Shown here piece after piece: positions 5,920 to 50,085 of a DNA stretch of 64,000 nucleotides (position 1 is its first letter; each line of letters starts with the position of its first letter). The translations under genes and the position numbers were made by a program. The notes under the pieces were generated by a model. It was not told where the DNA came from. It saw only the letters and a list, made by a program, of their open reading frames with translations, and ran no database searches. The stretch comes from Bacteroidota bacterium (GTDB taxonomy: Bacteria; Bacteroidota; Ignavibacteria; Kryptoniales; JAKASW01): NCBI GenBank assembly GCA_021789975.1, contig JAJYIT010000007.1:59444-123443 (forward strand), given 5' to 3'.

Positions 5920-5931
5920 TCAGAAATAGTT

Positions 5932-14232: not shown

Positions 14233-14268
14233 AGAATCTTGAAATGAAGAAGGAAAGAGGGTATCGAA

Positions 14269-15042: not shown

Positions 15043-15071
15043 TCACCTTTATTGTCTTAAGGCGTGAAGCT

Positions 15072-15251
15072 ATGCAGCCCCTTCTGAGCTTAATCAGCTT
15101 GATGATCGTGACCATAGTTCTCGGAAAGGGAAACTGGAGCAGCAAGTCTGTCAAGTACGCTATCGTAGTGGTTGTTGCCATGCTGCAAACAATCCTTGTG
15201 CTGATCGGCATGTTCACTATGAAAGCTCCCACTGCCCGGCTTCCATATTAA
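15072..15251 (+). CDS. Small 59-aa two-TM membrane protein (below the ORF-track length cutoff)
   Basis: MQPLLSLISLMIVTIVLGKGNWSSKSVKYAIVVVVAMLQTILVLIGMFTMKAPTARLPY*; fills the gap between the kinase and wzy, same orientation, stops 13 nt before the wzy start. Confidence 0.65.
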   Translation: MQPLLSLISLMIVTIVLGKGNWSSKSVKYAIVVVVAMLQTILVLIGMFTMKAPTARLPY

Positions 15252-15264
15252 AAGACGGGAAAAT

Positions 15265-18397: not shown

Positions 18398-19650
18398 AGA
18401 TTCTTCACCTCGCTCCATATTCCCCAGTCCCTCCAATTTTCGGCGGAGCTCTCAGAGTTTATCATATACTCAAGGGACTGTCCCGTCACCATGATGTCAC
18501 GTTTATGACAATAGGCACCGACGAAGACAGGAAGCTCCTCAACTCGCACTTTGGAGAGACGGTCAGAAAGATTCACGTGATCCCGTCGGTTGGCACCCCA
18601 TTCATGCGGCCGTGGAAACTTGTAACGGGAGCAATACTCCACGGCAGAAGCATGATGTTGCAGAATGCATGGGACAATAACGTCAAAGACGCCCTGGAAA
18701 GATTGTTGAAGAGAGAGAAATTCGACATTCAACTGGCTGAGTTTCCAGGGATGGCGCAGTTTGACGCGCCGAGCGATACCGTTACAATTCTCGATGAGCA
18801 TAACGTCGAATTCAGTAACCTTGAACGGATGTATAAAGGCGCCCATTTCCCGCCCCGCAGACTTCTCTACTATCGAGAATTCCGCAAACTTCAGCATGAT
18901 GAACTAGAAGTCTGCAAACGTGTAGATTCGATTTTCGCCACATCAGAAAACGATGCGAGGCTGCTGGACCAGATGCTGCCCAATAAGCCAAAGTATGTAA
19001 TACCTAACGGTGTCGACACAAGCTATTTTGTGCCGTCAGATATGAGCCTCGAGCCGTACTCGATGGTTTTCACCGGGACTATGGACTATTTCCCGAACCA
19101 CGACGCGATGAAATATTTTATCGACTCGATATTTCCGATTGTGAAAAAGCACTTCCCACAAGCCAAAATATATGTCGTCGGGAAGAATCCGGATCTGAGC
19201 CTAAAGCGCCGGGCAAGTAGGGATATCATTGTCACCGGTTATGTCTCTGACGTGAGACCGTATGCTCTCAAGGCCTCCGTTTATGTGGTTCCTCTCAGGA
19301 TGGGAAGCGGAACTCGGTTGAAGATCCTGGAAGCTCTCGCGATGAAGAAAGCCGTCGTAACCACGACCATCGGTTGCGAAGGAATAGATGTCGAAGACGG
19401 AGTTAATGTAGATGTGGCAGACAGCCCTTCCTCTTTCGCTGAAAGAATAATAGATCTCTTCAATAATAGAAAACGCGCCACAGAGCTTGGTGAGCGCGGT
19501 TATCAACTGGTAAGGGAGCGATATGACTGGAAGGTAGTCGAGAACCAGATGGAGGCAGCAATAAGCGCGGTTGTCGAGCGAAGAACCAGTTCCGCGCTCT
19601 CAGTTACCAATGCACCCGCGAGGGGGGGAGAAAATTACAATGACGCTTAG
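18394..19650 (+). CDS. Glycosyltransferase family 4
   Basis: MKILHLAPY..GGALRVY, DEHNVE, VIPNGVD, FTGTMDYFPN, GSGTRLKILEALA; start ATG 18394 overlaps the wzx stop (ATGA). Confidence 0.9.
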   Translation: MKILHLAPYSPVPPIFGGALRVYHILKGLSRHHDVTFMTIGTDEDRKLLNSHFGETVRKIHVIPSVGTPFMRPWKLVTGAILHGRSMMLQNAWDNNVKDALERLLKREKFDIQLAEFPGMAQFDAPSDTVTILDEHNVEFSNLERMYKGAHFPPRRLLYYREFRKLQHDELEVCKRVDSIFATSENDARLLDQMLPNKPKYVIPNGVDTSYFVPSDMSLEPYSMVFTGTMDYFPNHDAMKYFIDSIFPIVKKHFPQAKIYVVGKNPDLSLKRRASRDIIVTGYVSDVRPYALKASVYVVPLRMGSGTRLKILEALAMKKAVVTTTIGCEGIDVEDGVNVDVADSPSSFAERIIDLFNNRKRATELGERGYQLVRERYDWKVVENQMEAAISAVVERRTSSALSVTNAPARGGENYNDA

Positions 19651-20443
19651 AGATAGTGTGACTCAGACAGACTCAAAAACCGCGGTCAAAGTCCTTATGT
19701 ACCATCGAGTCGTCGGAGACCAGGACCACACACCTGGTTATGCCTGGACTGTTTCGCAGTCACAGCTTCGAAGACAACTTGAGATGTTGGACAAGTGGGG
19801 ACACACATGTATCAGTTTCCAGGACTATTCCCTGGCAAGAATTGGCAAGCTCACCTTGCCACGAAAACCTGTTATCCTGACATTTGATGACGGATATGAC
19901 GACGTGTACCGATTTGCTCTACCGATCCTGAAGGAATTCGGAGTCAGGGGAACAATATTCTTACTTGGGGACCGTCACGTAAAATCCAATTCCTGGGAAG
20001 ACGAGCCACTCAGGGGCGCGCAGCTCCTTAACGAGGGACAAATCCGAGAGATGTACGAGGCGGGCTTCGAAATAGGATCACATTCATTGACACACGCGTG
20101 TCTGACAAAACTGTCGCGAGATGGAGCATGGGAAGAAATCTCCACCTCCAAAATGAGATTGGAGGAACTCCTCGACGGACCGATCACCGTATTCGCGTAT
20201 CCCTTCGGCGCAGTCAGCCCCGAGCTTGAGAGAATGGTGAGAAGTGCCGGCTATGACTACGGGTGCGGGTCTTATACTGGACCTCCGAGATTCGAGGAAA
20301 ATCTTTTCAACATAAGGCGAATACCGATTACAAGTTCGACAAAGGCGGTTGATTTTGCAGTAAAGATGCTTACTCCATACGAATACTATGCATGGCTGAG
20401 ATGGAAGACGCACAAGAGCCTGATGCCTTCCGTCTCAAGATAG
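19640..20443 (+). CDS. Polysaccharide deacetylase (CE4, IcaB/NodB-like)
   Basis: VLMYHRV, LTFDDGY, IGSHSLTH, FAYPFG; start ATG 19640. Confidence 0.92.
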   Translation: MTLRDSVTQTDSKTAVKVLMYHRVVGDQDHTPGYAWTVSQSQLRRQLEMLDKWGHTCISFQDYSLARIGKLTLPRKPVILTFDDGYDDVYRFALPILKEFGVRGTIFLLGDRHVKSNSWEDEPLRGAQLLNEGQIREMYEAGFEIGSHSLTHACLTKLSRDGAWEEISTSKMRLEELLDGPITVFAYPFGAVSPELERMVRSAGYDYGCGSYTGPPRFEENLFNIRRIPITSSTKAVDFAVKMLTPYEYYAWLRWKTHKSLMPSVSR

Positions 20444-20479: not shown

Positions 20480-21889
20480 ATGAATACGCAAATATACGAG
20501 GCGACCGAAGTTCTCGCTGTTGAGACTCAAAACGAATCCCCATTTATAAGCACGGAGATTACAACCGAGGAAAGCGCCTTCCTCTCGTTGGCTGCTGACT
20601 GGGACAAGCTTGCAGCCAGGTCATCGGCAACATTCTTTCAAACCTTCGACTGGCAATTCCTCTGGTGGAAACATTTCGGAAGGCGAACGCATCACCATCT
20701 CCTGATCGTACAGGTAAGAGAAGGCGGGCGCCTCATAGGGCTCGCCCCTTTTTTCCTTCAGACACATACTTTGTTGGGATTCAGGATATTCAGACAACTT
20801 AAGCTCCTTGGATCGGGCCTAATGTCGGAGTACTCACCTATTCTATCGCTCGAAAAAGAAGGCCCGGCAGACTATCTGGATATAATTGCAGAAACTGGAT
20901 ATGAAGATTCAGTTGCAACGAAGATCGCGGAATTCCTGACTGAGAACAATTACCTGTGGGACGAAGTAGACCTTCAGGATCTCCCTGAAGACGGATTCAT
21001 AATCAGTCATTTGTTGCCGCGTCTTCGGCCTTCCGAATTTGAGGTCACGAAGTCGGCAAGCGATGTCTGCCCGAAAGTTAATCTCCCGGATTCCATCGAC
21101 CAGTATCTCGCATCACTGCGTACCAACATCAAAAGAAGTTTTCGCCGTGCTTACAGGACTTACGTCGAGAGTTCCGATTTCAATATTGAGCATTTAGGGC
21201 CAGATGGAAATACGGAGAGTGCCTTCCAGGCTCTGACGCAATTACACCAGAAACGGTGGAACAGCATAGGTTACCCCGGTCTTTTCGCAGATAAGCGCTT
21301 TGCCGCGATGCAGCACGATTTGATCAAGGCATTAAGCGGACGGGATAGATTGTGGATCATGGTCCTGCGCCATCAGGAGAAACCGGTCGCAGCCCGCCTC
21401 GGCTTCGCATTCAACGGAAGGTTCTACGATTATCTGAGCGGCATCGAACAAGACAACACCCGCCCCGGGATGCACCAGTACTCCGGGGCAGGGATGGCAT
21501 TGATCTTTACATCTATGGACCGAGCATTGAAAAGCGGTGCTCACGTGTTTGATCTTCTCCGGGGAGACGAAGCTTACAAATTTGATTTGGCAACTGATGT
21601 ACCAAATAATTACCGCGCCACGATCGTATCTAAGATGGCTCGCAGGAGAAAGTGGAAGCTTTTCTATCGCATTCATTCTGCAGGATACGCCTATTCAATG
21701 AGGGTTGTCTGCGAATCCGCGATCTTTAGAGTGATCGCAGGTGAAAACGGAACCGGCAATGCCGTTCCGAAATATCTATCGCATTTGTTCAGGCGAATGA
21801 CAAGATCCCGATCCTACGCATCCGCTTCAGTCAAGAGCCCCAAACGGACTGTGACACGGGACTCGAACGAGAAAAATAGCGATGCTTAA
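20480..21889 (+). CDS. CelD/BcsL-family GNAT (Acetyltransf_6) protein
   Basis: FFQTFDWQFLWWKHF, LIGLAPF, ADYLDII, LHQKRW, FDLLRGDEAYK. Confidence 0.88.
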   Translation: MNTQIYEATEVLAVETQNESPFISTEITTEESAFLSLAADWDKLAARSSATFFQTFDWQFLWWKHFGRRTHHHLLIVQVREGGRLIGLAPFFLQTHTLLGFRIFRQLKLLGSGLMSEYSPILSLEKEGPADYLDIIAETGYEDSVATKIAEFLTENNYLWDEVDLQDLPEDGFIISHLLPRLRPSEFEVTKSASDVCPKVNLPDSIDQYLASLRTNIKRSFRRAYRTYVESSDFNIEHLGPDGNTESAFQALTQLHQKRWNSIGYPGLFADKRFAAMQHDLIKALSGRDRLWIMVLRHQEKPVAARLGFAFNGRFYDYLSGIEQDNTRPGMHQYSGAGMALIFTSMDRALKSGAHVFDLLRGDEAYKFDLATDVPNNYRATIVSKMARRRKWKLFYRIHSAGYAYSMRVVCESAIFRVIAGENGTGNAVPKYLSHLFRRMTRSRSYASASVKSPKRTVTRDSNEKNSDA

Positions 21890-22772
21890 CAATCTCAGGA
21901 AGAGAGTGGTACATACGATCGCATCGAGACATATCGCGGGACGCGAAATAGGAGACGCCCTTCGTGTTTGCCGATGGGCACAGACGAACGCATACCGTGT
22001 GATACTTTCTCCGTGGCGGTCTCCTGATGATTCGGCAAAGAATATGATCGCGAGATACAAAGAAGCCATGCGCGTCATCTCAGATGAAAGGCTCGACGGC
22101 TACGTGTCACTTAAACTGAATGCAATCGATAGCGACATGGGAATGTTCCGCGAACTGGTAAGTATGGCACGGTCTGCAAATGTCAGGCTCCACCTCGACT
22201 CTCTCGGCCCCGATTCTGCGAATGCCAGCTTCGAATTCCTGGAAGACGCGGTGTCTGACTATCGAAATATCGGAACGACTCTCCCTGCCCGATGGAGACG
22301 CAGCCTTGAAGATGCAGACAGAGTTTATGAGCTCGGAATCCCGGTCAGGATAGTCAAGGGACAATGGCCGGACCTTGACGATCCAAGACTAGATTGCCGT
22401 AAGAACTATTTAGACATTGCACATAGATTTGCCGGCAGGGGAATCCATGTGGGCATAGCGACGCACGATTACTCACTCGCCTCCAGGACTTCGTCTTTGT
22501 TCAAAGAGTCTGGGACTTCATTTGAGCTGGAGCAATTTTTCAGTCTGCCGCTTAACACGAGCTCTCTCGCGAATAGGATTGGTTGCGGGTACCGGCTCTA
22601 TGTCGCTTACGGATACCCCGAGGTACCATACAACGTCCGATTTGGAATTTCGCGTCCGGGGATAATCGGCTGGGTAGTAAAAGATTTTGCAGTAAGAAAC
22701 AGAAAACCGTGGGAGAAATCTCCGTCATCCATTCATGAGGTAGCCGATACAACTGACCGAACCGTCTCTTAA
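21882..22772 (+). CDS. Proline-dehydrogenase-fold flavoprotein (divergent)
   Basis: RHIAG, YVSLKL, RLHLD, VRIVKG, IATHD, LYVAYG match monofunctional PRODH motifs; overlaps the upstream GNAT stop. Confidence 0.75.
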   Translation: MLNNLRKRVVHTIASRHIAGREIGDALRVCRWAQTNAYRVILSPWRSPDDSAKNMIARYKEAMRVISDERLDGYVSLKLNAIDSDMGMFRELVSMARSANVRLHLDSLGPDSANASFEFLEDAVSDYRNIGTTLPARWRRSLEDADRVYELGIPVRIVKGQWPDLDDPRLDCRKNYLDIAHRFAGRGIHVGIATHDYSLASRTSSLFKESGTSFELEQFFSLPLNTSSLANRIGCGYRLYVAYGYPEVPYNVRFGISRPGIIGWVVKDFAVRNRKPWEKSPSSIHEVADTTDRTVS

Positions 22773-22915
22773 TTAGGGAAAATTGACATGGACTTTACTT
22801 CCCGGCGAGATCGGATTGTCGCCGAAAGCTGACTGTTCTGGACATTGATACTCGTACACGACTAACACTTATGAATGGTGATATTATGGTTAAGTAAATA
22901 GATAGCATTGAAGAG

Positions 22916-24001
22916 ATGGATTTCCTGATCGACAGATGGACTGAGCTGGAAAAGAGATTCGGTTCTCCGGTTATGAGCCCAGAATGGTTTCGCGCGGGGG
23001 CCGCGACGCTATGCCCTCCATATGACTTAAAGCTCGCAGTGAGAGAGAAAGATGGAGCGCTGGACGGGGTAGCCCCCATCGGGAGACTGAAGCACTTCAT
23101 GAGCAGACTTGAGGTCCTCGGAACTACTCTCCTGACCGAAGAGGGCGGGTTCCTCTATTCGAATACCGACGCGCTCATGGAGATGGTTGAGGCAATTATT
23201 CAGTTGGACAAACCCGTGTTCCTGCGGCGGGTGAGGATGTACTCTGAAGAGGCAAAAATCTGGGAAAAGGAAATTTGCGCGAGGGGTTTGCGTTGCCTGG
23301 TCCGGGAAGAACGGCTTCCGTGGGTGGCAGTCCGCAGCGATTGGAAGAGTTTCGAGAAACAACAAATATCGTCGAGCCGGAGATCTATCTTCAGAAGACT
23401 GCAACGGTTGGCAGAACAGAAAGGTGAATTCAAGTTCGAAGCTGTTGTTCCCACCTTTGAGAATCTGGATCAATACCTGGACGAAGCGTTCGAGGTCGAA
23501 GTCTCTAACTGGAAGGCCCGACGGCGAACTGCAATGAAGTATAACGAAAGGCTGGGCGGCTTCTTCCGCGAATATGCCAGGCTTGCTACGGAATCGGGCG
23601 AGCTCAGGTTGTTTTTTCTACGAGTCAACGAGGAGCCGATTGCGGTCGAACTCACGACTTTACATGGCAACAGGATCTGGATACTTAAGATTGGACACAA
23701 CGAGGCATGGTGGAGGTGCTCTCCCGGAATTCTCCTAATGCATAACGTAATCAGGTTTTGCTTCGAGAATGGCCTTGAAGGCTGCGAGTTCGGCGGAACT
23801 GATGAACCATGGCTTCACATTTGGGCCAACGAGTCCCATAGCGCTTGGACCTACAGAATATATCCGGGTTCGGTTAAAGGCATGTTTCAACTCGGCGTTG
23901 ATCTCCTTCAGTTAACAGGTGGAAAGATACACACAGTGGCAGCCACACTAAAAGCTAGAAAGAATTCGCACAATGAAACCGGTCAGGCACAAAACAATTA
24001 G
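22916..24001 (+). CDS. CelD/BcsL-family GNAT (Acetyltransf_6) protein; probable true start at 22871/22886 is interrupted by an in-frame TAA at 22895-22897
   Basis: SPEWF, GVAPI, EVEVSNWK, LRLFFLRVN, KIGHNEAW.RCSPGILL, EFGGTDEPW; the upstream in-frame MNGDIMVK*IDSIEEM aligns with the N-termini of the two paralogs. Confidence 0.8.
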   Translation: MDFLIDRWTELEKRFGSPVMSPEWFRAGAATLCPPYDLKLAVREKDGALDGVAPIGRLKHFMSRLEVLGTTLLTEEGGFLYSNTDALMEMVEAIIQLDKPVFLRRVRMYSEEAKIWEKEICARGLRCLVREERLPWVAVRSDWKSFEKQQISSSRRSIFRRLQRLAEQKGEFKFEAVVPTFENLDQYLDEAFEVEVSNWKARRRTAMKYNERLGGFFREYARLATESGELRLFFLRVNEEPIAVELTTLHGNRIWILKIGHNEAWWRCSPGILLMHNVIRFCFENGLEGCEFGGTDEPWLHIWANESHSAWTYRIYPGSVKGMFQLGVDLLQLTGGKIHTVAATLKARKNSHNETGQAQNN

Positions 24002-28513: not shown

Positions 28514-29263
28514 TCAAATTCGCTCAGTTGCCTCCACTTGTTTTCTCCCAAGAAAAATCGAAATCAGGATCGTAACCGGGAATCTGACGGTCGCAGTAAA
28601 GATTCTATTGATCCTCTGCGGTTGTTTAATAAGTCTGTAAAGCCACTCAATGCCTGCGGAGCGCATCCATGCCGGCGCCCGCGGGACAACTCCGGCAATA
28701 AAGTCAAACGTCCCACCCACGCTCATAGCGATCTTAGGAGTCAACCTGTTCTTGTTCTCGTAAACAAATTTTTCCTGCTTTGGTACGCCAAAAGCTACAA
28801 GGAGAATGTCTGCTTCCGAATTGTTGATCCGGTCGACAAGGCCGTTTTCATTTGGGGTACCGGAGTAAGTGCCGGCGATTCTAAGTGCAGGATAGGCTTT
28901 CTTGAGACGCTCTGCCGCCTTAGCTGCTATCCCTTCTGCAGCTCCAAGAAAAAAGATCGAGTACGAATTGTCAGAGGCAATCTTCGCCACCTCCCACGTG
29001 AGATCGACACCCGGAATTCTCCGCCCTACTTCAATGCGGAGGACTTTGGCAGCAAAACGCAGCCCGACCCCGTCCGGTATGGTGAGATCGGCTGCATTTG
29101 AAATTTTCAGAAGTTCCGAGTCGTGACGCGTCGCCATAATGAACTCCGGATTTACCGGTATCACATGATGAAGTTTCTCACTCGTCAGGAATGTCTTGAG
29201 CCTGGAAATGACCTCGTCGTAACTAAGCCCGTCCAGTCTGACCGAAAGTATCTCCGCCGCCAT
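28514..29263 (-). CDS. WecB/TagA/CpsF-family glycosyltransferase (GT26)
   Basis: NPEF, PDGVG, RIPGVDL, FFLGA, VAFGVPKQE, VGGTFDFIAG, RAPAWM, EWLYRL..QPQR. Confidence 0.93.
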   Translation of the reverse strand: MAAEILSVRLDGLSYDEVISRLKTFLTSEKLHHVIPVNPEFIMATRHDSELLKISNAADLTIPDGVGLRFAAKVLRIEVGRRIPGVDLTWEVAKIASDNSYSIFFLGAAEGIAAKAAERLKKAYPALRIAGTYSGTPNENGLVDRINNSEADILLVAFGVPKQEKFVYENKNRLTPKIAMSVGGTFDFIAGVVPRAPAWMRSAGIEWLYRLIKQPQRINRIFTATVRFPVTILISIFLGRKQVEATERI

Positions 29264-29266
29264 CTC

Positions 29267-32146
29267 TTAGTTCACGCCCGGGCCGAGCCGGTTGAAGAAG
29301 AGGAGCGAGGCCGCCCTCTTGTACCGGGGAAAATCTGCCAAGGTAAGCAGGTCAACTATAAGGGACTCGAGTGAATCAGGAGGGAACTCCCTGAGAAGCT
29401 GCACTTTGCCTTCGGATCTGTTTGCGCGTGTGAGTAGCTGGACAGCACTTAGAAGTCCTGACTGAATGTTCCCCTGGACTACTTTCACTTTCTCCTGTCT
29501 TGCCAGGTCCCTGATTCTTGTAGAACAGTTTCCGGGTGAGAATGCTATATTCACCTTCTCGAGCATCGGAATGTCTTCGTCGGAATCTCCCATTGCGATC
29601 GTTTGCCCTGTGAATTTCTTTAAGTACTCTTTGTAAGAAGCTACTGCATTCCCCTTATCGTTCCTGATGCCAACGAGGTAGGTGTCAGCGCCGTGAACAA
29701 TCGCCTTTAATGATTTGACACCTGCTCTCTTAATGACGGATTCCGCCTCTTCACTCGTAAGTCCAGATATTCCGTGTTTCGCATACTTGAATACCCTGAG
29801 TGCGTACTTGTAATCGGGATCGATGAAGACACCGTCGGAATTGCCAATGACCTCCCGGCAGGCGTTAAGAGCGGCATTGACGTCATCATCAATCAGAGGA
29901 ATTTCTGTCTTACGCTCATTGTCGTAGATAACGCTACCGTACTCGCCGATACCGGCGACAAATCCGTAAGCATTGCAATAGTTTTTGATATGCTCCACAC
30001 TTCTGCCCGTATTCGGTATCACCGAAATGTCGTCCGAACGCAGCAGCGAAAGCGCTTTCAAACCGTTTTTCGTGGTATGAGGAAAACCAAGGAACTCAGC
30101 ATCAAACACGCCGTCCAGATCCATGAAGAAGATCGTCGAATCTGTTGAGAGTGATCGGCTGCATTTTTCCGTCAAGAGTCCGGCAGCAAACTCAGCCATC
30201 GCATAGACCCTGAAGTTCCACCCGTGCAAAAAACGTCTGTGGAAATATTCGGCATCGTCGCTTTCCCTTCTGTGAAGGATGCGGTGAAACATTCGGTCAG
30301 ACTCAGCCGCTCCATACAAAAGCTTGTAGAGAAACACCCTTTCAGATAATGTCCTTACGTCTCCACTTTCCCTGGAGTATTTATTGACCAGGTTTTCCTC
30401 ATCATGAACATCCAGTGAAAATTCGAACGATGAGATTGCAAGATCGTAGGCCGGGTCCACTACGTCAAGTTCGGGAGCACCAAAATTATGGTGTTCGAAA
30501 TCGGTCTTTACCATGCCGGTTTCCGTTTTAAGCCATTCATCAGGCATCATTTTCCCGTCCACCAGTGCGTGAGGCGAATAGAGCGATCTCTTCAAACGCT
30601 TGAGCAGGACGCCGTTCTTGGGATAACCCATGAAGTTTCCATATACTCTTCTCAGAAGTGCAAGGATCTCAAGCCATCCCCATCCAAGATAGCGTGGATC
30701 GCCTTTCGGATCTTCGTCGAGTGAAAGTCTTTGGTTCCTTGCAGCCAGATAGGCTGCCATTTCATCGAGTGCCTTTTCTGTCAGATCCTCTCTTGTCAAC
30801 GGTGTGCCGTCCACCCACTCAGTAAAAAGGATCCCTCTCCTTAAGGTGATTAGTTTGGGAACGAATTCTTCCAGCGCCAATCCGGCAAAAAAAGAATGGT
30901 AACCGAGCCATCCGAGCCCGACCGCTTTACCAATTATCCTTTTCGCCTCAATCGTACCATCTTCCCTGATCACTTCCATGTCATAGACTCTTTTCAGCCG
31001 CACCTGGTAACTATCGGCATAGTGGCTCCAGAGTTTCCGGTTGATTTCACGGGTCCCCGGGTCCTCAAAGACTGAAACAGCGCGCGCACCGTATCTCTCA
31101 AAATGTTCCCGCATGATGCTCTCGACGTTTGCCGGCTCAAACAATTTCTTCATAAAGAGATCATCCTGGTTCAACGTCAGGACCATAACTCTGTTGTCGG
31201 AAGGAATCTGTCCGACCGGTTTGTGTGGATGGATGGGGGCCAGGATTACTATGTTCTTTGCCGGGATGCCAAAACCTTTGACAATTTCCTCAAGCATGCG
31301 GAAAGTCCCGCCGGTATTCGAAAAGTCGTCGATTAAAATAACGCTCGTTCCGTTGGTAAGCTTTTGCGCAAGCCACTTCCGTTCGAACTCATGAATCCCG
31401 AATTTCGGTCGAACAGCGATCCAGGAAACATCACGAATCCCTTTCGTTCCGAGATACGCCTTCAGCAAAGGACCCAGGTAACTTCCTGCAGTTCTAGATC
31501 CGACAATTACAATCTTTTGCTTCTTGTTAGGCATGGCGTCCAGGAATTTATCTCCAAGCGCAAATACATCGTGGTACGACATATCCTGGCACCGAAAGCC
31601 CTCGTTAATCTTCATTCGCGCGACGCGGGCACCCCCCGGTAGGACCAAATTCCGGTAACTGTTCAACGACTCCCGCATCGCGGATACTTCATCTCGTGTG
31701 AGAGTTCTCGATTCAACCAAGAGTCTGCAAACAAGGTCAAGTCTCTCTTCCCATTCCGATTTCCACCGGAAGAGCTTCCTGTAGCGCATATCCCCGATTA
31801 GTGACGGAATGAAGTTGAGAAACCTCTCAGCCTTCCCTGAGATTCCCCTGAACTCTGGAAAATGGTTTGCCAGAGGCCTGATATAGAAGGGACGTCTGAG
31901 TAGATAATCGTCCAGGGTGCAGCTTATGGCAGATGAGAATATATATAGGTTTATTCTCGATTCCTCTTGTTGCCAACCGGCTTGGGATCTCTCGTGCATC
32001 TTGAGTTCCGCATCCAAACGGTTAATCAACTCATCGAGCTTCAGAAAGGGATTCAGAGACCAACGATAATTGGAATAGAAAAGGTATTCAATTGTATCTA
32101 TGTCCGGCACAGGCGTCGTTTCCACACCCGGGGTGTCGTTACTCAT
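29267..32146 (-). CDS. 959-aa multidomain protein: type I PRTase-like + APH/protein-kinase-like + HAD-IIB phosphatase
   Basis: PRPP-loop-like VILIDDFSNTGGTF and IVIVGSRTAG; kinase-like ..IIGK..LFTEWVDG..VDGKMMPDEWL..VKTDFEH..DPAYDLA; HAD motifs DLDGV, NTGRS, DKG, GDSDED. Confidence 0.75.
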   Translation of the reverse strand: MSNDTPGVETTPVPDIDTIEYLFYSNYRWSLNPFLKLDELINRLDAELKMHERSQAGWQQEESRINLYIFSSAISCTLDDYLLRRPFYIRPLANHFPEFRGISGKAERFLNFIPSLIGDMRYRKLFRWKSEWEERLDLVCRLLVESRTLTRDEVSAMRESLNSYRNLVLPGGARVARMKINEGFRCQDMSYHDVFALGDKFLDAMPNKKQKIVIVGSRTAGSYLGPLLKAYLGTKGIRDVSWIAVRPKFGIHEFERKWLAQKLTNGTSVILIDDFSNTGGTFRMLEEIVKGFGIPAKNIVILAPIHPHKPVGQIPSDNRVMVLTLNQDDLFMKKLFEPANVESIMREHFERYGARAVSVFEDPGTREINRKLWSHYADSYQVRLKRVYDMEVIREDGTIEAKRIIGKAVGLGWLGYHSFFAGLALEEFVPKLITLRRGILFTEWVDGTPLTREDLTEKALDEMAAYLAARNQRLSLDEDPKGDPRYLGWGWLEILALLRRVYGNFMGYPKNGVLLKRLKRSLYSPHALVDGKMMPDEWLKTETGMVKTDFEHHNFGAPELDVVDPAYDLAISSFEFSLDVHDEENLVNKYSRESGDVRTLSERVFLYKLLYGAAESDRMFHRILHRRESDDAEYFHRRFLHGWNFRVYAMAEFAAGLLTEKCSRSLSTDSTIFFMDLDGVFDAEFLGFPHTTKNGLKALSLLRSDDISVIPNTGRSVEHIKNYCNAYGFVAGIGEYGSVIYDNERKTEIPLIDDDVNAALNACREVIGNSDGVFIDPDYKYALRVFKYAKHGISGLTSEEAESVIKRAGVKSLKAIVHGADTYLVGIRNDKGNAVASYKEYLKKFTGQTIAMGDSDEDIPMLEKVNIAFSPGNCSTRIRDLARQEKVKVVQGNIQSGLLSAVQLLTRANRSEGKVQLLREFPPDSLESLIVDLLTLADFPRYKRAASLLFFNRLGPGVN

Positions 32147-32643: not shown

Positions 32644-33984
32644 TCATTCCTGCCGCGAGTCTTCCTTTACTGGCTTGGCTGATCTGCTCAGAGATTTTGA
32701 GAAGTAAGAAACGCCAAATTTCGCCAGATCTTTAATTTTGTTTCCGAGGAACTTGAACATCATGGCAGAGGAGGGCTTCTCGGTAATCAAGTACCTCTTG
32801 AATTCGTGGTATTCTCTGTTCACTCGAATCGGGACCTTCCTGGCAAACTCCAACAATATGAAAAGTCTGAACCTTATGTTGCCGGAAGCGCTCGGATAAT
32901 AGATCCGCGCCATCGTATTCGAGGTCTGGACGCACTTGAAATCCTTATACTTGTATGCCTCCTTACCGCGCAACATATCGTAAATCTGTGCGCCCTCTTC
33001 TATTCCCTTCTTGATCGCCTGCGAGTGCAAAACATAGCCGGGGCTGTATCTCATCGCTTCACCGGAACCGTTGGCATTTGCCTGATAAACATAGATACGG
33101 TTGTGAAAGACGAAGCTAAAATTCACAGCCACCCTCTTCCCGTTCAACTTCAGAAAATATATTTGCAGCCAACCGCGAGACGCAAATTTTTCGGCAACCT
33201 GTATGTGAAAATCGAGGTGCTCGGGGTTATCGAACGCACTTTCATAGCCAAGCCCTTTCCAGCGTCCACCGTGAATTGAAGCGAAGGTCTCAACCGCCGC
33301 TCCCACATCTGTCACCTGCTCGCCGAACTTCTCTACTTCAAATTTGAAGTTCTCCATCAACTTCTCAGTCTTTCTCTTCAGCTCGTGTCTTGCATGTCGC
33401 CCAAGCTGCTGTAAGAAACCATCCCATGTCTGAGGAAGTGGCACATGCGAGCAAAGAGTCCCTTGGTACTCCCGAACGGAGCAACTGGTATTCCTGAGGC
33501 GATCTACTAACTCGCGGGAGAGCGGAGTGAATACATTCACATCCGACATTTCAAAAATATCCCAATGTTTCCTATTGCGATCCAGATGTTCGAGGACAAC
33601 CCGGACGAACGATTCTTCGTATCCGGGCATTATAATCGGCTCAAGATAATCGGATAGACCCGTGCCGATGTATCGCAGCCATGTCGCAACCTTGACCCCC
33701 AGGAAGTTTACGCTCTGTTTGAACAATGGCAGGATTCCGATTATCCGACCACCATCTGTCCCGACAAGAATATAGAGCTTCCTGTTTCCCCCCAGATACT
33801 TCCACCAGGTTCGCTGCCATTCATAGGTTTGGAATATCGTTACCTGAGCTTCCTCGACAAGCGCCTTCCAGACTTCTTCCATCCCATCGAAGCTGTCTTC
33901 AGTGTCTATGACCGAGACACGCAATTGCCTTTCCTGGTCAACCAGGAGAGGGGGATTCAACTTATTTGAATCAACAGTCATCAC
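32644..33984 (-). CDS. CelD/BcsL-family GNAT (Acetyltransf_6) protein
   Basis: IFQTYEWQRTWWKY, IGILPL, SDYLEPI, IHGGRW, YSPGYVL, YDMLRGKEAYK. Confidence 0.88.
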   Translation of the reverse strand: MMTVDSNKLNPPLLVDQERQLRVSVIDTEDSFDGMEEVWKALVEEAQVTIFQTYEWQRTWWKYLGGNRKLYILVGTDGGRIIGILPLFKQSVNFLGVKVATWLRYIGTGLSDYLEPIIMPGYEESFVRVVLEHLDRNRKHWDIFEMSDVNVFTPLSRELVDRLRNTSCSVREYQGTLCSHVPLPQTWDGFLQQLGRHARHELKRKTEKLMENFKFEVEKFGEQVTDVGAAVETFASIHGGRWKGLGYESAFDNPEHLDFHIQVAEKFASRGWLQIYFLKLNGKRVAVNFSFVFHNRIYVYQANANGSGEAMRYSPGYVLHSQAIKKGIEEGAQIYDMLRGKEAYKYKDFKCVQTSNTMARIYYPSASGNIRFRLFILLEFARKVPIRVNREYHEFKRYLITEKPSSAMMFKFLGNKIKDLAKFGVSYFSKSLSRSAKPVKEDSRQE

Positions 33985-34320: not shown

Positions 34321-35277
34321 TTGGCAGGCGTGAATATTATCAAAAAGGCCGTGGGGCAATTGCAGCAGGTACGCTCCATAGATGACGCAAAAATATATGC
34401 CAGGAAAATCTCTGACGCTGCAATCCATGGTGTCACAAATTACTTGGGACGTCCATCACCGCCGCAACTTCAAATAGAACCCACAAACATATGCAACGCA
34501 GACTGCATCAGTTGCCCTACTAATCGGGCCCGTCGGAAACGAGGGTATATGCCGATGGAATTGTTTAAGAAGATAATTGACGATGCAGCCAATATGCGGG
34601 TGAGGAGCGTGGCATTATACATGCACGGCGAGCCTCTTCTGCACCCGCATTTCGGGGACATGCTCTCTTATGTCAAAGAAAAAGGAATTGCTTTCTACAT
34701 ACGGACAAATGGATCCGCTCTGTCGGGAAGGAAAGCTGAAGAGATCTTGAGTGCCGGCGCAGATTTCACTGACCATGTCATTGTTTCCATCCTCGGATTA
34801 TCAAAGGACGTTCACGAACTGGTGATGGGGAACGTCCAGCATGAAAGGGTCGTAAATAATGTACTGAAGTTAGTTGAGACGCGAAACTCCAGAGGTCTCA
34901 GGGGGCCGGTCATCGAAGTAATCTTCTACGAAATGGCAGAGAATACACATGAGAAACAAGCCTTCCTTGATTACTGGTCAGGAAAAGTGGACCGAGTATT
35001 CATGGGCGAAACGTCCGTTTCCTTTGCAAACTACAACTTAGCGGAGCAGCCGGCAATCGTCAGAACTCATTCATGTGCGGAGATACATCACATGTGGGTC
35101 TTCTGGAATGGAGACGTTACACTTTGCGGGCAAGACATCAACGGAGAATACATCTTCGGCAATCTGGAGCATCAGACCATAAGCGATGTTTGGAACTCAG
35201 AGGGGTTGATGAACATCCGCAAAATTCATAAGCGGAATGAATTCGGTAAGATTCCGATTTGCTCGAACTGCGGATAG
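34321..35277 (+). CDS. Radical SAM / SPASM-domain protein
   Basis: CNADCISC (CxxxCxxC), GEPLLHP, TNG, C-terminal C..(VFWNGDVTLCGQD)..FGNL..W..CSNC. Confidence 0.9.
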   Translation: MAGVNIIKKAVGQLQQVRSIDDAKIYARKISDAAIHGVTNYLGRPSPPQLQIEPTNICNADCISCPTNRARRKRGYMPMELFKKIIDDAANMRVRSVALYMHGEPLLHPHFGDMLSYVKEKGIAFYIRTNGSALSGRKAEEILSAGADFTDHVIVSILGLSKDVHELVMGNVQHERVVNNVLKLVETRNSRGLRGPVIEVIFYEMAENTHEKQAFLDYWSGKVDRVFMGETSVSFANYNLAEQPAIVRTHSCAEIHHMWVFWNGDVTLCGQDINGEYIFGNLEHQTISDVWNSEGLMNIRKIHKRNEFGKIPICSNCG

Positions 35278-35502
35278 CATGCTTGAAGAGGGGACTGTGT
35301 TGCACGGCCCGGTGGCTTGGCACTCGAGTCTCCGCCGGTGGTTACAATTTCCTGCCGGTAGTAATTCTTACCTGAATACCAAGACAAGTGGGTTGTAACC
35401 GTCAGATGCAGAGCATAAACATGTGCTTTCGTATCCACTGAACGGCAGATAAGCCTGCGTTTACCTGTTGCGCCCGGCACGCCACTTGAACCCGATGCCA
35501 CT

Positions 35503-36450
35503 GTGGCTGTGCCAAGATTATATTACTATTCGAAATCGGAAGTCCGCTTCAAAGAGATCAGCTTCCCGCGATTTGTCCTAGCAACTTGCGCATTCATAGC
35601 TGCCCTTTCTTTCATGACAGTTGCCGCGGCGCAGATCGGAATCGATCCTCTTCACTTCAGAGATTTCCAGTACAGAGGTATTGCTCTGAGAAACGCCGGA
35701 TTGAAAGCTGAGCTCGCCTCGTTCGCCGACAAGCTGAACTCCTGTGAGAAAACAATGGGCCGATTGACGGGTAGCAACGACCTGCTCAGGACTGTAGTTA
35801 ACCTCCCACCCATCCCCCGCGGAGTTAGGGAAGTTGGTATCGGAGGTGTGAAAGAGAACTTCGACTACGGGGTTTCAACTCGCGCAAATGCGCTCATAGC
35901 CTCTGCAACTCTGAAGCTCCAGTCATTATATAGAGATGCACGATTACAGCGCCGAAGCTACGATGCCATCCGGCGCCAATACAAAATGGACGAGCAGCTA
36001 TACCGTGATCTGCCGGCAATCGATCCGGTAACAAGCGATTTGGTATCGAGCCCATTCGGCATGAGGTTTCACCCAATACTCCACATCATGTTGATGCACG
36101 AGGGGATGGATTTTGCGGTGAACGTCGGAACAAAAGTACACGCCACTGGTCACGGAACAGTGGAGTATGTCGGTAGAGAAGGAGGCTACGGCAACGTTGT
36201 TGAGATAAAGAACGGTTTCGGTTATACGACATTATTTGCTCACCTCGAGAAAGCACTGGTCAGGGTTGGCCAGAGAGTGGAGAGGGGACAGGTGATCGCG
36301 CTTAGTGGAGACACGGGTCTTTCAACAGGCCCGCATCTTCACTACGAAGTAAGAAAGAACGGCATCCATGTCAATCCGGCAGGATATTTCTTTTCATCGA
36401 AACAATTCCGCAGAAAGATTCTCTTCAAAGAGATCGCTAGCATTAAATGA
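35503..36450 (+). CDS. M23-family metallopeptidase with N-terminal TM and coiled coil
   Basis: FGMRFHPI, HEGMDF (HxxxD), GYGN, TLFAHL, TGLSTGPHLHYEV (HxH). Confidence 0.93.
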   Translation: MAVPRLYYYSKSEVRFKEISFPRFVLATCAFIAALSFMTVAAAQIGIDPLHFRDFQYRGIALRNAGLKAELASFADKLNSCEKTMGRLTGSNDLLRTVVNLPPIPRGVREVGIGGVKENFDYGVSTRANALIASATLKLQSLYRDARLQRRSYDAIRRQYKMDEQLYRDLPAIDPVTSDLVSSPFGMRFHPILHIMLMHEGMDFAVNVGTKVHATGHGTVEYVGREGGYGNVVEIKNGFGYTTLFAHLEKALVRVGQRVERGQVIALSGDTGLSTGPHLHYEVRKNGIHVNPAGYFFSSKQFRRKILFKEIASIK

Positions 36451-37398: not shown

Positions 37399-39741
37399 TT
37401 ACATATTCTCCGTACTCTTCCTGAGTGTCATACAAGTTTCGTAGAACTCAGGGAGACTCATCGATCTGAGGAATACGAATCCTCGTGTTGCGCGTATGAG
37501 CGGGCTCGTATGGTCGTTAAAGAACTCGCGTCCTAAACAGACCTTCAACATCTGGTACTGTTCCACCTGTATTTTCTGTGCAAGGTCTGAGAAAGGTCCA
37601 TCCAGTTCGTAGCTTGGAAATGACGCGCCTCTTTGCGAAGCGAAAGCGTTCATGAAGGAATTGCCCATCACGGCGAACATGTTGAGCGACACAGGAACAT
37701 ACACATTCGTCTCTGCTGGGTGGAACCGGTACCATATATTCCTGTAGCCGATTACCCTGATATCGGTTCTTCCGGATTCCTGTTCGTACATTCTCAGAGC
37801 TTCCGCCATAACCTGGAGCACTTTGTAGTGAGTGTCCGGTCCGCTTGCTTCCGGGTCGAGCGCTACCCCGACAACGTCGGGATTCACGTGTCTGAGGATT
37901 TCCAGCACCGGAACGACGTCGCGCTCCACCTTGGGTTCTTCAGTGAATATGTCACCCTTGTAAAAACCGAGGCGGCCCTGAATGATCGAGGGCGAATTGA
38001 AGCCGAAGTATCCCCACAGGCACTCGACTTCCCATTCCCTCGTCATTCCCTTTAGCTGCTGGATATGCGGCGGGTCTTTGGCGCCAGGATACTGCTTTTC
38101 AAAATACTGAATGAGCTCGTCTATCCGATCATATATTTCCGTCCGCTCTTGAACCTGGTAGACGGCAAGCAGGTTTCTCATCAAACGCCTCGCTTCTCCG
38201 TCCCTCTGGGTGCGCGCATTCTTCTCGGCAACCCCGTCAAGGTACCTCCAAACATCGCGGTTGCGTTTTTTATGATCATTCTGTGCAAAGTAGTCCTGTG
38301 CAAACAGCCTTTCGAAGGCCCCGTGTCTAAGAAAGTACCTTAGGTTGGTAAGTTGCTCCAACATATGTGCGTTACTAACTGAATTAAACCCGCTTGTCAG
38401 AGTCAAGAAGGTGTGCTTGTTTGATGCCTCCCTGGAGCGACGAACAACGTAGGCAAGATATCCCAGCATGACGTCGTCATGGTGTGGCTCAGTATGAAGA
38501 AAGACCGTATTTACTTCAGGATTGCTCCCTCTTTCTATTCTATCGACGAGTTTCCGCTCGATGGAGTGCGCCATTTGTTCTCTAGTCTCGGACCTTTTCT
38601 TGAGTAGCTCCGCAGTAAATCTGTTCCCCTCGAAGTCAGCGTCCGTAAGGTCCCTCAACTTCTTACGTTTTTCCAACGCAAGGTCGATAACGATCCTCTC
38701 CATCTCAACATCTGAAACCTCTTTCTCTCGAAGGAATGCATTGTATTGTCTCTCCTTGAGAAGCTTCGCGGCTCCTTCCGTAAGATAGAACCTTGCGTTC
38801 TTCAGAGTCTGAAGGACGGTAGCGGGATAGATGACATGTTTATCTTCTTGAATTGCTGCTGCAACGACCGGTGCCTTTGCTTCACCGGCGGCCATCACAA
38901 TCGCCGTGCACGACGAATTATAAGTGATGGTGCTCAGACCGATGGTAATAACATGCCTGTTGCGTGAGGTCTCGATCCCACCGAGGTCAGTTGCCGCGGC
39001 TGCCTGCGTTTCGTAATTCGTAGGCGTGAGTCGTGTGGTTGAGTTGAGATCCGAACCACGGATATTAAAACCGATATGTCCGTCAGGACCAATTCCGCCC
39101 AGAAAGAACCCGATTCCGCCAAGACTCCGAATCTTCTCTTCGTAATCGGCACACCACTGATCAATGTTTGCCAGTACCTCCTGTTGTAGTTGTTCCTGTG
39201 CATTTTTGGCCTGCCTGAACCTCAGTGTCAGATCCACTTTGTTGTCCGGCCAGACGTCTTCGAGGGTCATTCCTTCTTCAAGTCCAATCTCATCACAGTT
39301 GATGAAGTTGGCCTTCTTCTTGTCGAACCCGAAACCCTGCATGTAAAACTTGTTGACGTAAAAGAAGAAGCTGTTTTCCTGTTGAGGGTTTATAGGATAG
39401 AACTCGTCGATTTGAGCAAAGTGAAGCGATTGAATATCGGGTTTGACAACGGGATCGATCCCGTTAGACTCGAGATCTTCCTTCACAGATTTGTCAGACC
39501 AGTTGTTCACGTAGTGCGTGACCCACTTGATGAAATGCTCCGGTGTCTTCCCGGTGGGTAGAGAGACCACCCCGCCACGGTTCTGCTGCACCCACTCTAT
39601 GAACCTTAGAGCAGTTAGCTTGCCGAGCATAGGAAAATTATCTACTACTATGACCCCTATCTTCTCGGCAGGAGGGTAGAAAAGCTTGTCGCCCGACGCG
39701 GTAAGTGTCTTTTGTTCTACTTTAGATGATATATCTTTCAT
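37399..39741 (-). CDS. nagB: Glucosamine-6-phosphate deaminase fused to a C-terminal PIG-L/LmbE-like domain
   Basis: SLPTGKTP, QIDEFYP, GGIGPDGHIGFN, ITIGLSTI, AGEAKA; C-terminal PHHDDVMLG and GPDTH. Confidence 0.88.
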   Translation of the reverse strand: MKDISSKVEQKTLTASGDKLFYPPAEKIGVIVVDNFPMLGKLTALRFIEWVQQNRGGVVSLPTGKTPEHFIKWVTHYVNNWSDKSVKEDLESNGIDPVVKPDIQSLHFAQIDEFYPINPQQENSFFFYVNKFYMQGFGFDKKKANFINCDEIGLEEGMTLEDVWPDNKVDLTLRFRQAKNAQEQLQQEVLANIDQWCADYEEKIRSLGGIGFFLGGIGPDGHIGFNIRGSDLNSTTRLTPTNYETQAAAATDLGGIETSRNRHVITIGLSTITYNSSCTAIVMAAGEAKAPVVAAAIQEDKHVIYPATVLQTLKNARFYLTEGAAKLLKERQYNAFLREKEVSDVEMERIVIDLALEKRKKLRDLTDADFEGNRFTAELLKKRSETREQMAHSIERKLVDRIERGSNPEVNTVFLHTEPHHDDVMLGYLAYVVRRSREASNKHTFLTLTSGFNSVSNAHMLEQLTNLRYFLRHGAFERLFAQDYFAQNDHKKRNRDVWRYLDGVAEKNARTQRDGEARRLMRNLLAVYQVQERTEIYDRIDELIQYFEKQYPGAKDPPHIQQLKGMTREWEVECLWGYFGFNSPSIIQGRLGFYKGDIFTEEPKVERDVVPVLEILRHVNPDVVGVALDPEASGPDTHYKVLQVMAEALRMYEQESGRTDIRVIGYRNIWYRFHPAETNVYVPVSLNMFAVMGNSFMNAFASQRGASFPSYELDGPFSDLAQKIQVEQYQMLKVCLGREFFNDHTSPLIRATRGFVFLRSMSLPEFYETCMTLRKSTENM

Positions 39742-39988
39742 TTTCTTCTTTTTCGATTATTGAAGTTGATTGTAATTTAATCATCGAGCAAGAAATGTCC
39801 GATGAAATGGTCTGTAACAAATCTGTGACGATGCCTCATCATTCGGCTCAATGTACCACCCCTTTTCTCGGGATGCCCCCCGAATGCCCACCTCCGCCTC
39901 CGAGTGCATTTATGCCGCCGATTTTTTGCAAAATTCCATGAAGCATCGGGCACGGGGTACCCGTCCGGGAGGCGCGTCGCAATCATCG

Positions 39989-41380: not shown

Positions 41381-41562
41381 GGCGACTCCTCCTTCAAAAC
41401 TTCCGAAAGGCACTATCCAACAGGGAGGAAGGACTAATAGGCGATGATTCTGAGCACCAAGCCTTGATATCGGCTTCGCGCACTAAGTCCTTGGAACTCC
41501 CGACTTTCCATACTTTAAATCAGTAACCAGGATGCTGGTGAGCAATCACCCTGGTTTGGCTC

Positions 41563-43965: not shown

Positions 43966-44167
43966 CTTTATGATTCTCGATCCTAAATTTTGAATAATTG
44001 ACTTATTTGGATATCGTTGGTCATGTACCAATGCCTGGTATCAGCAGAGCCCGAACCGAATTTCATCTTAGAATCGTAGACAAACCATCATACCGAAGGC
44101 ATTAAAGCATGGGACCAAAATCACATTCCGGAAGGAAGCCGAGAGTGATCACGCCCATCGGACCTCC

Positions 44168-46674: not shown

Positions 46675-46678
46675 GGCA

Positions 46679-48124: not shown

Positions 48125-48153
48125 GCCTTTGTCAAGAGGAGAAAGTTTTAGAA

Positions 48154-48199
48154 GAAGGTTACCTTCAGCCTGGTTTGGCCAGAGAAGAAGGCAACCTTC
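48154..48199 (-). terminator. Stem-loop after the T9SS-protein gene (partial terminator or mRNA-stabilising hairpin)
   Basis: GAAGGTTACCTTC (48154-48166) and GAAGGCAACCTTC (48187-48199) form a 13-bp inverted repeat with one mismatch; pyrimidine-rich tail on the minus strand. Confidence 0.5.
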
Positions 48200-48213
48200 A
48201 ACGCAGCGTACAG

Positions 48214-49965: not shown

Positions 49966-50085
49966 TTTACTTCTCCTTCTTGTTAGTTTTGACCGTTTTG
50001 AAAAACTGAACCGGGTTGGTGTTCCAAGAAACAACTAAAACTTTTATCTCCTCACCTCCTCCTTCCGAAAATGGTTTGATATGTC

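Follow-up and report, generated by a model that had tools for sequence, protein, structure and literature searches.

What does a single polypeptide with a phosphoribosyltransferase (PRT), a kinase fold and a phosphatase contribute to a polysaccharide locus? This question is raised by a 64,000-nucleotide stretch of DNA from a Bacteroidota bacterium (contig JAJYIT010000007.1 of GenBank assembly GCA_021789975.1), referred to here as the window, in which a 959-residue fusion protein, designated TRI, is encoded. The occurrence of TRI in slime-polysaccharide clusters, in company with a proline dehydrogenase (PRODH)-like enzyme and FemAB-like acyltransferases, points to an undescribed sugar decoration. 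On the analysis given below, TRI may be a soluble enzyme with three active sites that tailors the repeat unit in the cytoplasm, within a Wzx/Wzy-type route of exopolysaccharide synthesis, and ribosylates an acceptor borne on an amine or amino-acyl group, a reading that is favoured tentatively and with less than even confidence.

Three conserved catalytic folds in a single soluble chain

The first-pass annotation of the window had described three modules in one open reading frame (ORF), and this division is borne out by Pfam, profile searches and Foldseek. It had named no strand, which is minus, and all the motifs that it quoted are present in the translation: IVIVGSRTAGSYL (residues 212-224), VILIDDFSNTGGTF (269-282), the kinase-like motifs IIGK (404-407), TEWVDG (442-447), DGKMMPDEW (530-538), KTDFE (547-551) and DPAYDLA (564-570), and the HAD motifs DLDG (676-679), TGRS (713-716), DKG (830-832) and GDSDED (853-858). 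From the N-terminus, TRI consists of a helical bundle, a type I PRT core, a ChoK/APH-like domain, a HAD-IIB phosphatase and a C-terminal tail (Table 1), and these folds are backed by predicted structures, with predicted local distance difference test (pLDDT) scores of 93-95, as well as by profile searches. Three conserved catalytic folds are thereby combined in one soluble chain, which by its domains belongs to the type I PRT, ChoK/APH-fold and HAD-IIB superfamilies and is present in its own genome as a single copy.

The AlphaFold2 model of residues 1-335, built on an alignment of 106 rows (pLDDT 93.1), places the bundle (18-175, with helices at 18-31, 37-53, 57-82, 97-121, 123-145 and 151-165) before an alpha/beta core. 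In Foldseek, this part gave 43 matches at E ≤ 0.001, and those listed are mostly HGPRT, XGPRT, purine PRT, PurR, APRT and UPRT at a Foldseek probability of 1.00. In VIA-align, run against 48,161 chains, a five-stranded alpha/beta PRT core was recovered at Z 10-12.4 with a root-mean-square deviation (rmsd) of about 3 Å over 120-135 residues, the first match being UPRT (1bd3, Z 12.4, rmsd 3.0 over 135 residues), and the other top matches being PyrR, phosphoribosyl pyrophosphate (PRPP) synthase, APRT, HGXPRT and OPRT. The PRTase fold that had been suspected in the N-terminal third is confirmed by both structural searches, and a profile of 39 PRT domains additionally matched 127 solved PRTases at E ≤ 1, the best of them at 3.3e-5, on the PRPP loop.

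The residues expected of such an enzyme are retained in these 39 domains. The pattern of a PRPP loop, that is, a hydrophobic strand, two acidic residues and xx-x-[TS]-G-x-T, is present in VILIDDFSNTGGTF, where D273 and G279 are invariant, D274 is Asp in 36 domains and Glu in three, T278 is Thr in 33 and Ser in six, and N277 and T281 are kept in 35 and 37, respectively. R218 of the pyrophosphate (PPi) loop and R246 are found in all 39, and the residues invariant outside the PRPP loop comprise these two arginines, H306 and the RCQD motif at 185-188. We infer that the PRT domain uses PRPP. The bundle has invariant or near-invariant columns of its own (W58, Q59, E62, N66, Y68, C76 and D80); among the VIA-align chains it matched generic helical bundles only, at Z of about 10-11, under the bar of 13 applied to bundles.

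The structural matches also bring up a reading without ribosyl transfer, in which the PRT-like domain, in the manner of PurR and PyrR, would sense PRPP or (p)ppGpp and thereby regulate the kinase and the phosphatase, which together would fix how far a sugar or substituent is phosphorylated. The best structural and sequence matches include PurR (7rmw with ppGpp, 1o57 and 1p4a), PyrR (1w30, Z 11.8) and a protein that binds ppGpp (5vog, Z 11.5), but R218, R246, H306, RCQD and the many invariant polar residues of the bundle look like an acceptor site, and a kinase opposed to a phosphatase in one chain would run a futile cycle unless the two acted on different positions. This reading is considered quite improbable.

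The model of the kinase-like domain (residues 326-670) reached a pLDDT of 94.6 and gave 309 Foldseek matches at E ≤ 0.001 with template modelling (TM) scores of about 0.5, led by ethanolamine kinases, choline kinases and LicA. In VIA-align, the bilobal kinase fold was recognised at Z 14.5-17.2 over 243-285 residues, with homoserine kinase II as the best match (Z 17.2) and with ChoK-family members, APH, corramycin phosphotransferase, methylthioribose kinase, glucosamine kinase, NahK and maltokinase within about 2 Z of it. The canonical Brenner motif of such kinases is HxDxxxxN; it is replaced in TRI by DGxMxPx[E/D/N]W, with V before the D and a spacing two residues longer. Nine residues (K385, K407, D530, K547, D549, E551, H553, D564 and D568) are invariant in 52 of 52 kinase-like domains, position 537 is acidic or Asn in every one (26 E, 20 D, 6 N), and both the metal-binding Asp (DFG/IDxE) and the downstream DPxxDLA helix are present. 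Judged from the residue pattern, the domain fits an active phosphotransferase with a remodelled catalytic loop.

The HAD domain was the only part of TRI matched by Pfam (Hydrolase_3, 41.1 bits against a cut-off of 20.9, E=2.2e-10). Subfamilies of HAD-IIB in NCBIfam match under their own cut-offs (TIGR01484, 30.5 against 41.8; Cof, TIGR00099, 44.7 against 137), and the profile of the full-length family found 3fzq in the PDB at 1.6e-13. HAD motifs I-IV (DxD, T/S, K, GDxxxD) are complete, and D676, D678, T713, K831, D854 and D858 are kept in 31 of 31 sequences. It is conceivable that TRI is a non-catalytic scaffold of an assembly complex whose domains are without activity, as the non-canonical catalytic loop and the loss of kinase residues in distant relatives might suggest, but the would-be catalytic residues are invariant in all three domains across phyla, and a scaffold is regarded as very unlikely.

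Relatives of TRI are numerous and publicly inconspicuous. A word-indexed search gave 34 clusters at E ≤ 0.001 with identities of 34-56%, four of which are shorter (609, 625 and 837 residues) or the query itself, the remainder being full length (889-996 residues); a precomputed PF00156 match is attached to four of the 34. An exhaustive profile search returned 7466 proteins at E ≤ 0.001, a number inflated by the HAD part, 1709 at 1e-10 and 682 representatives at 1e-30. They are catalogued as "HAD hydrolase family protein", as "hypothetical" or under automatic labels from JGI (hypoxanthine phosphoribosyltransferase, for example), and the earlier statement that no characterised protein is known with this domain order is supported, since none was named by any source checked.

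Genomic loci with TRI homologs number 66, nearly all of them in metagenome-assembled genomes (MAGs). They are spread over Bacteroidota, Kryptoniota, Ignavibacteriota, Balneolales, Acidobacteriota, Gemmatimonadota, Armatimonadota, Alpha- and Betaproteobacteria, and one record bears the title Nevskia soli. In the phylum of the window itself, TRI occurs in one of 201 sampled genomes, that of the window, and a genome of the same genus is without it. Distant relatives at 24-27% identity, attributed by name to Streptomyces longisporus and Chloroflexi, retain both the PRT and the HAD residues; the relative named from S. longisporus (P0236, 923 residues, 24% identity) could serve as an experimental entry point. 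Some genomes carry two TRI copies in tandem or a few kilobases apart (L002, L010, L064), and in the Kryptoniota MAG Bin_42 three contigs (L002, L027, L050) together hold at least four.

Split forms, sought as shorter proteins (30-526 residues) at E ≤ 1e-10, were absent from the 8000 candidates scored. Short profile matches mostly look like contig-end fragments, and four clusters begin at profile position 532. Two-domain clusters of 578-648 residues without the HAD domain are found in the ESM Atlas (feature score 0.96), which is a lead only. No family was matched by the stretches that extend the long forms P0092 and P0117 at their N-termini.

Partner genes in the homologous loci

Whether the neighbours of TRI in the window are its regular partners was assessed by searching the 66 loci with the proteins of the window's locus (tblastn, coverage of at least 50% required). 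The PRODH-like protein of 296 residues, termed P296, was found in 53 loci, and the three Acetyltransf_6 proteins of the GNAT type, termed GNATa, GNATb and GNATc, in 38, 49 and 40, respectively; the polysaccharide deacetylase followed with 13, a family 2 glycosyltransferase (GT2) with 12 and the WecG/TagA glycosyltransferase (GT26) with 6. In a stricter count of 65 loci, one being under the TRI threshold, 46 are well flanked, with at least 3 kb on both sides; P296 is present in 41 of these and at least one of the three GNAT types also in 41. P296 is missing from five well-flanked loci (L008, L027, L029, L040 and L057) and lies within 300 bp of TRI in 40 of the 65 loci. The same-strand order GNATb-P296-TRI recurs in 33 of the 66, as counted manually from the table of loci.

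The wider setting was examined by all-against-all clustering of the locus ORFs and Pfam annotation of representatives, antisense ORFs of TRI, P296 and the GNATs being set aside. Among the 66 loci, clusters of deacetylase (19), GT4 (16), two of GT2 (11 and 9), DUF218 (10), Wzx (8), GH9 (7), MBOAT (6), GT26 (6), Bac_transf (5), Wzy (5) and ATP-grasp (4) were obtained, and ten closely annotated loci (74 ORFs) carry Wzx, Wzy, GT2, GT4, MBOAT/AlgX, Acyl_transf_3, Asn synthase and Wzi; a nonribosomal peptide synthetase occurs in one of them (L030), a single case. Clustering and detailed annotation thus agree with the first-pass expectation that homologs lie mostly in glycan loci. Some of these neighbours are also found fused to TRI. 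P0038 joins GNATb to TRI, its N-terminal part being 37.7% identical over 353 residues to the GNATb of the window, P0063 and P0148 join TRI to a GNAT, and P0100 joins GT4 to TRI; these GNAT and GT4 fusions support a functional link to TRI.

The first-pass annotation had singled out another partner, GT26, as coupled to TRI. The 3-nucleotide gap that it reported is real, the junction reading GTG AAC TAA GAG ATG (stop codon TAA, GAG, start codon ATG), but the coupling is a local arrangement, GT26 being present in 6 of the 46 well-flanked loci. The reading that goes with this gene is that the PRT domain acts on a sugar hydroxyl of the repeat unit made by GT26, with the HAD domain removing the 5-phosphate and the kinase adding a cap. 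It draws on PRT and HAD folds with intact motifs, on the three-base gap to GT26, on the recurrence of GT26 beside TRI homologs in Bacteroidota, Kryptoniota and Alphaproteobacteria (L003, L009, L021, L027, L029 and L036), and on the precedent of gPRT-PRP and CriT/CrpP (PMC10299916, PMC11294581). The frequencies of P296 and the GNATs, set against that of GT26, argue the other way, as does the vicinal DD of classical N-ribosylating enzymes, which is kept in TRI and split in CriT (D680/E818); moreover, hydroxyl ribosylation would leave the conserved flavoprotein and the GNATs without a role. It is accordingly judged unlikely. With GNATs, the PRODH-like P296 and frequent deacetylases as partners, the acceptor is likelier to be an amine or amino-acyl substituent than a plain sugar hydroxyl, and the retained DD pair is at least compatible with a classical N-nucleophile.

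The nature of P296 was approached with a profile of 50 sequences, which matched Thermus PRODH (2ekg) across the barrel (E=2.4e-28, 260 positions); in NCBIfam, the match to ProDh_Thermus lies far under the equivalog cut-off (Table 1). The motifs of the flavin adenine dinucleotide (FAD) site, VKG and ATH, are kept, with R156, K159, G160, T194 and H195 found in 50 of 50 sequences. The Arg-Arg pair of Thermus PRODH ("PYLTRRIAERP"), which presumably binds the proline carboxylate, is not kept, position 253 being R in 19 and S in 17 of the 50, and position 254 Q in 32 and F in 9. Because this pair is not kept, free proline is probably not the substrate, which may instead be a proline-like ring with its carboxylate tied up in an amide or ester linkage, and P296 may represent a new subfamily of PRODH that acts on a substrate other than proline. 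An invariant motif of its own, T-L-P-x-R-W-x-R-S, occupies residues 133-141.

Two loci contain further genes beside the cassette. In L044 (Acidobacteriota, positions 5055-7585), a glutamate-5-kinase-like gene (AA_kinase plus PUA, ProB-like) and an aldehyde dehydrogenase gene (ProA-like) stand directly upstream of GNATb-P296-TRI, which hints at a supply of glutamate semialdehyde, pyrroline-5-carboxylate (P5C) or proline. In L064 (positions 13894-16112, the Nevskia soli record), the cassette is followed downstream by a gene for an FMN-dependent dehydrogenase and by one that weakly resembles inosine-uridine nucleoside hydrolases (32.5 bits, cut-off 34.2).

These neighbours bear on a further possibility, namely that a soluble riboside is assembled by the PRT and HAD domains on a small amine or heterocycle, which the PRODH-like enzyme may have made from proline or P5C; the kinase would re-phosphorylate this riboside, and a GNAT would transfer or acylate it. 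Classical type I PRTs use small N-nucleophiles, and the best matches of TRI are purine, pyrimidine and orotate PRTs, with a solved adenine phosphopsicosyltransferase (7f06) among them; the kinase fold matches homoserine, choline, methylthioribose, glucosamine and GlcNAc-1 kinases. However, the GT4 fusion (P0100) and the strict embedding in glycan-assembly loci fit action on a glycan better, the altered Arg-Arg pair of P296 argues against free proline, and the ProBA and nucleoside-hydrolase neighbours in L044 and L064 are single cases, for which reasons a soluble precursor is thought doubtful.

A proposed tailoring route and the locus around it

For the preferred reading, ribosylation of an amine- or amino-acyl-borne acceptor, the steps are proposed by analogy, since pairs of a PRPP-dependent transferase and a HAD phosphatase install ribofuranose on glycans (PMC10299916, PMC11294581) and on polyprenyl phosphate (PMC11127046). 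The PRT domain would bind PRPP and move ribose-5-phosphate onto a nucleophile of the lipid-linked repeat unit, most likely one on or beside an amine or amino-acyl substituent made by the deacetylase and the FemAB-like GNATs, and the conserved helical bundle would serve as an acceptor-binding hood. The HAD-IIB domain would then take off the 5-phosphate, as in known PRPP-dependent ribofuranosyl transfer, and the ChoK/APH-like domain may phosphorylate a hydroxyl with ATP, either priming the acceptor or capping the product. P296, as a flavoprotein, might oxidise a secondary-amine (proline-like) part of the same substituent.

Several observations weigh against this proposal. Neither Bcs3 CriT nor the gPRT of Thermobacillus is among the matches listed in the sequence, Foldseek and VIA comparisons, so that TRI is not visibly related to known glycan ribosyltransferases, and no characterised relative of TRI was found. 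The sensors PurR, PyrR and the ppGpp-binding protein rank among the best structural matches of the PRT domain. Sequence support for the kinase is weak, the best solved match being LicA (4r77, E=0.0025) over the C-lobe DPxxDLA helix only, and its assignment consequently rests on the predicted structure; in addition, the Brenner motif is non-canonical, and in distant relatives K407 is replaced by R and, in one, D549 is lost, so that the kinase domain may be dispensable or non-catalytic. The part given to P296 is a guess.

A bolder version, held to be rather unlikely, is that the cassette (GNATs, P296, TRI and often a deacetylase) builds a polysaccharide substituent of a genuinely new kind. A de-N-acetylated sugar would receive an amino-acyl group, perhaps of prolyl origin; this group would be oxidised by a PRODH paralog that has lost the requirement for a free carboxylate, and a classical type I PRT working on a glycan-bound acceptor would (phospho)ribosylate the oxidised group from PRPP. 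In a variant, the kinase would make a phosphate monoester for ribosylation by the PRT, as DPPRS does with decaprenyl phosphate, and a ribofuranosyl-1-phosphate diester would remain after 5-dephosphorylation. A literature search, with subscription journals outside its scope, found no paper on the TRI architecture or the cassette. The family is present in soil and bog bacteria of many phyla, yet it is publicly named just HAD hydrolase; the fixed partnership of TRI, P296 and FemAB-like GNATs defines a testable four-gene module, which could account for unknown non-carbohydrate decorations of environmental exopolysaccharides and could supply new donor or acceptor chemistry for glycoengineering.

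The 30 kb around TRI in the window form a Wzx/Wzy-type polysaccharide locus, as the first-pass annotation had stated. A WecA-type transferase, Poly_export, Wzz/GNVR, Wzy and Wzx are all present, alongside a ParA-like protein. GT4, GT2, a second GT4, a hexapeptide acyltransferase, the deacetylase, the three GNATs and P296 also belong to the locus (coordinates of selected genes in Table 1). GNATa, P296 and GNATb form a tight plus-strand run (20480-24001), in which the last 8 nt of GNATa overlap the start of P296, and GNATc, TRI and GT26 form a minus-strand run; in this genome the cassette thus consists of two divergent groups with about 5 kb between them. The profile of the GNATb family gave no match to solved structures at E ≤ 1, and the label FemAB-like thus rests on weak Pfam and NCBIfam matches. 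A GT4 ORF at 18160-19650 (plus strand, GTG start) overlaps the Wzx ORF by 238 nt, and its real start probably lies further downstream than the listed 18160.

Table 1. Coordinates of TRI, its domains and selected locus genes in the window
Feature	Position	Strand	Basis
TRI (fusion ORF, 959 residues)	29267..32146	minus	ORF list and translation
N-terminal helical bundle, residues ~18-175	31622..32095	minus	predicted model
Type I PRT core, residues ~186-330	31157..31591	minus	Foldseek, VIA, domain profile
PRPP-binding loop VILIDDFSNTGGTF, residues 269-282	31301..31342	minus	alignment to the loop of purine PRT 1vdm
Choline-kinase/APH-like domain, residues ~335-665	30152..31144	minus	predicted model, Foldseek, VIA
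HAD-IIB (Cof/MPGP/SPP-type) phosphatase, residues ~672-905	29432..30133	minus	Pfam, NCBIfam, profile
P296, PRODH-like, 296 residues	21882..22772	plus	NCBIfam ProDh_Thermus E=3.8e-13; weak Pro_dh match
GNATa, Acetyltransf_6	20480..21889	plus	Pfam PF13480 E=2.6e-19
GNATb, Acetyltransf_6	22916..24001	plus	Pfam PF13480 E=4.2e-28
GNATc, Acetyltransf_6 (FemAB-like), upstream of TRI, same strand	32644..33984	minus	Pfam PF13480 E=2e-23
Polysaccharide deacetylase	19571..20443	plus	Pfam Polysacc_deac_1 E=2.6e-28
WecG/TagA (GT26) glycosyltransferase	28514..29263	minus	Pfam Glyco_tran_WecG E=4.1e-58
Wzy	15265-16833
Wzx	16898-18397	plus

A scan of the window for promoters and terminators gave results at or under the shuffled expectation, and GC content is flat (0.47-0.52), so that an island signal is absent. 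A defence-system reading of TRI was tried and rejected, as PADLOC gave weak PRPP-loop matches alone (retron and Shosta PRTases, E ~0.005). The locus is bordered at 34321-36450 (plus strand) by a radical SAM/SPASM protein, whose top NCBIfam match is a tungsten-cofactor maturase far under the cut-off, and an M23 peptidase. The region 37399-53109 (minus strand) resembles a chitin or glycan utilisation cluster and contains a 780-residue protein with a weak glucosamine-6-P isomerase match, PIG-L, a GH94 phosphorylase, an MFS protein, an amidohydrolase, a TonB-dependent receptor, and GH18 and a second protein, both of which carry sorting tails of the type IX secretion system, tails that fit a Bacteroidota-type host.

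Comparison with known PRPP-dependent systems

PRPP-dependent ribosylation of glycans has been recognised recently and in two enzyme architectures, gPRT-PRP and CriT/CrpP. The founding paper on gPRT-PRP ribofuranosyltransferases is reportedly that of Kelly et al. in 2022. The examples compared were the Klebsiella prototype, Salmonella STM0726 and the Thermobacillus composti structure. In gPRT-PRP, one polypeptide encoded in a polysaccharide locus transfers Ribf-5-P and then removes the 5-phosphate (PMC11294581, PMC11127046), and TRI is alike in combining a predicted PRPP-dependent transferase and a HAD-family phosphatase in one chain within polysaccharide loci. With the D14A mutant of STM0726, a Rib-5-P intermediate was trapped (PMC11294581). 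The order of the parts is reversed, with PRP N-terminal and gPRT C-terminal in the known enzymes (PMC11294581), whereas TRI runs from PRT through the kinase-like domain to HAD; a kinase-like domain of 330 residues thus stands between transferase and phosphatase, and the phosphatase is of the HAD-IIB type.

CriT, part of the multi-enzyme capsule polymerase Bcs3 of Haemophilus influenzae, has a PRT-like alpha/beta core with helical bundles on its flanks and is paired with a HAD-like phosphatase (PMC10299916), a combination that TRI shares in the form of core, helical bundle and phosphatase partner. However, CriT divides the vicinal DD between D680 and E818 on separate loops, leaving an open active site (PMC10299916), whereas TRI keeps D273-D274. 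The phosphatase CrpP has a helical cap inserted into the flap that follows strand 1 and, of the two Asp residues of DxD, retains the first alone (PMC10299916), in contrast to the IIB type and intact DxD of TRI, and Bcs3 is without the kinase-like domain that TRI has.

Classical type I PRTases (HGPRT, XGPRT, UPRT, OPRT, APRT, PyrR and PurR) share with TRI the core fold, the PRPP loop and the PPi loop. They differ from TRI in sequence, with 11-22% identity among the first matches listed. In TRI, a 160-residue helical bundle replaces the usual hood, the PRT domain shares its chain with a kinase fold and a phosphatase, and the gene stands in a glycan locus.

Two further pathways resemble the cassette as a whole. 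In the route of DPPRS/PPPRS, a phosphatase and DprE1/DprE2, PRPP is used for transfer to a phosphate monoester, followed by 5-dephosphorylation and flavin-dependent oxidation (PMC11127046), which parallels, in logic only, a kinase-primed acceptor, PRT, HAD and neighbouring flavoprotein in the TRI cassette; its transferase is a UbiA-family membrane protein, and its oxidase is DprE1 rather than a PRODH-type enzyme (PMC11127046). In the Caulobacter holdfast, the deacetylase HfsH is paired with HfsK, a tandem-GNAT, FemX-like protein proposed to acylate freed amines (PMC5362036). The GNATs and deacetylase of the TRI cassette resemble this pair, the likeness to HfsK being one of description, and that account mentions neither a PRT-kinase-HAD nor a PRODH-like partner (PMC5362036).

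TRI therefore resembles gPRT-PRP and CriT/CrpP in outline and is a member of neither, because its domains follow the opposite order, with a kinase fold between them, its HAD domain is of another subtype than CrpP, its DD pair is classical and no similarity appears among the matches listed. The TRI family would add to these two a third, independent architecture of PRPP-dependent glycan ribosylation, in which a classical type I PRT is combined with an extra kinase fold.

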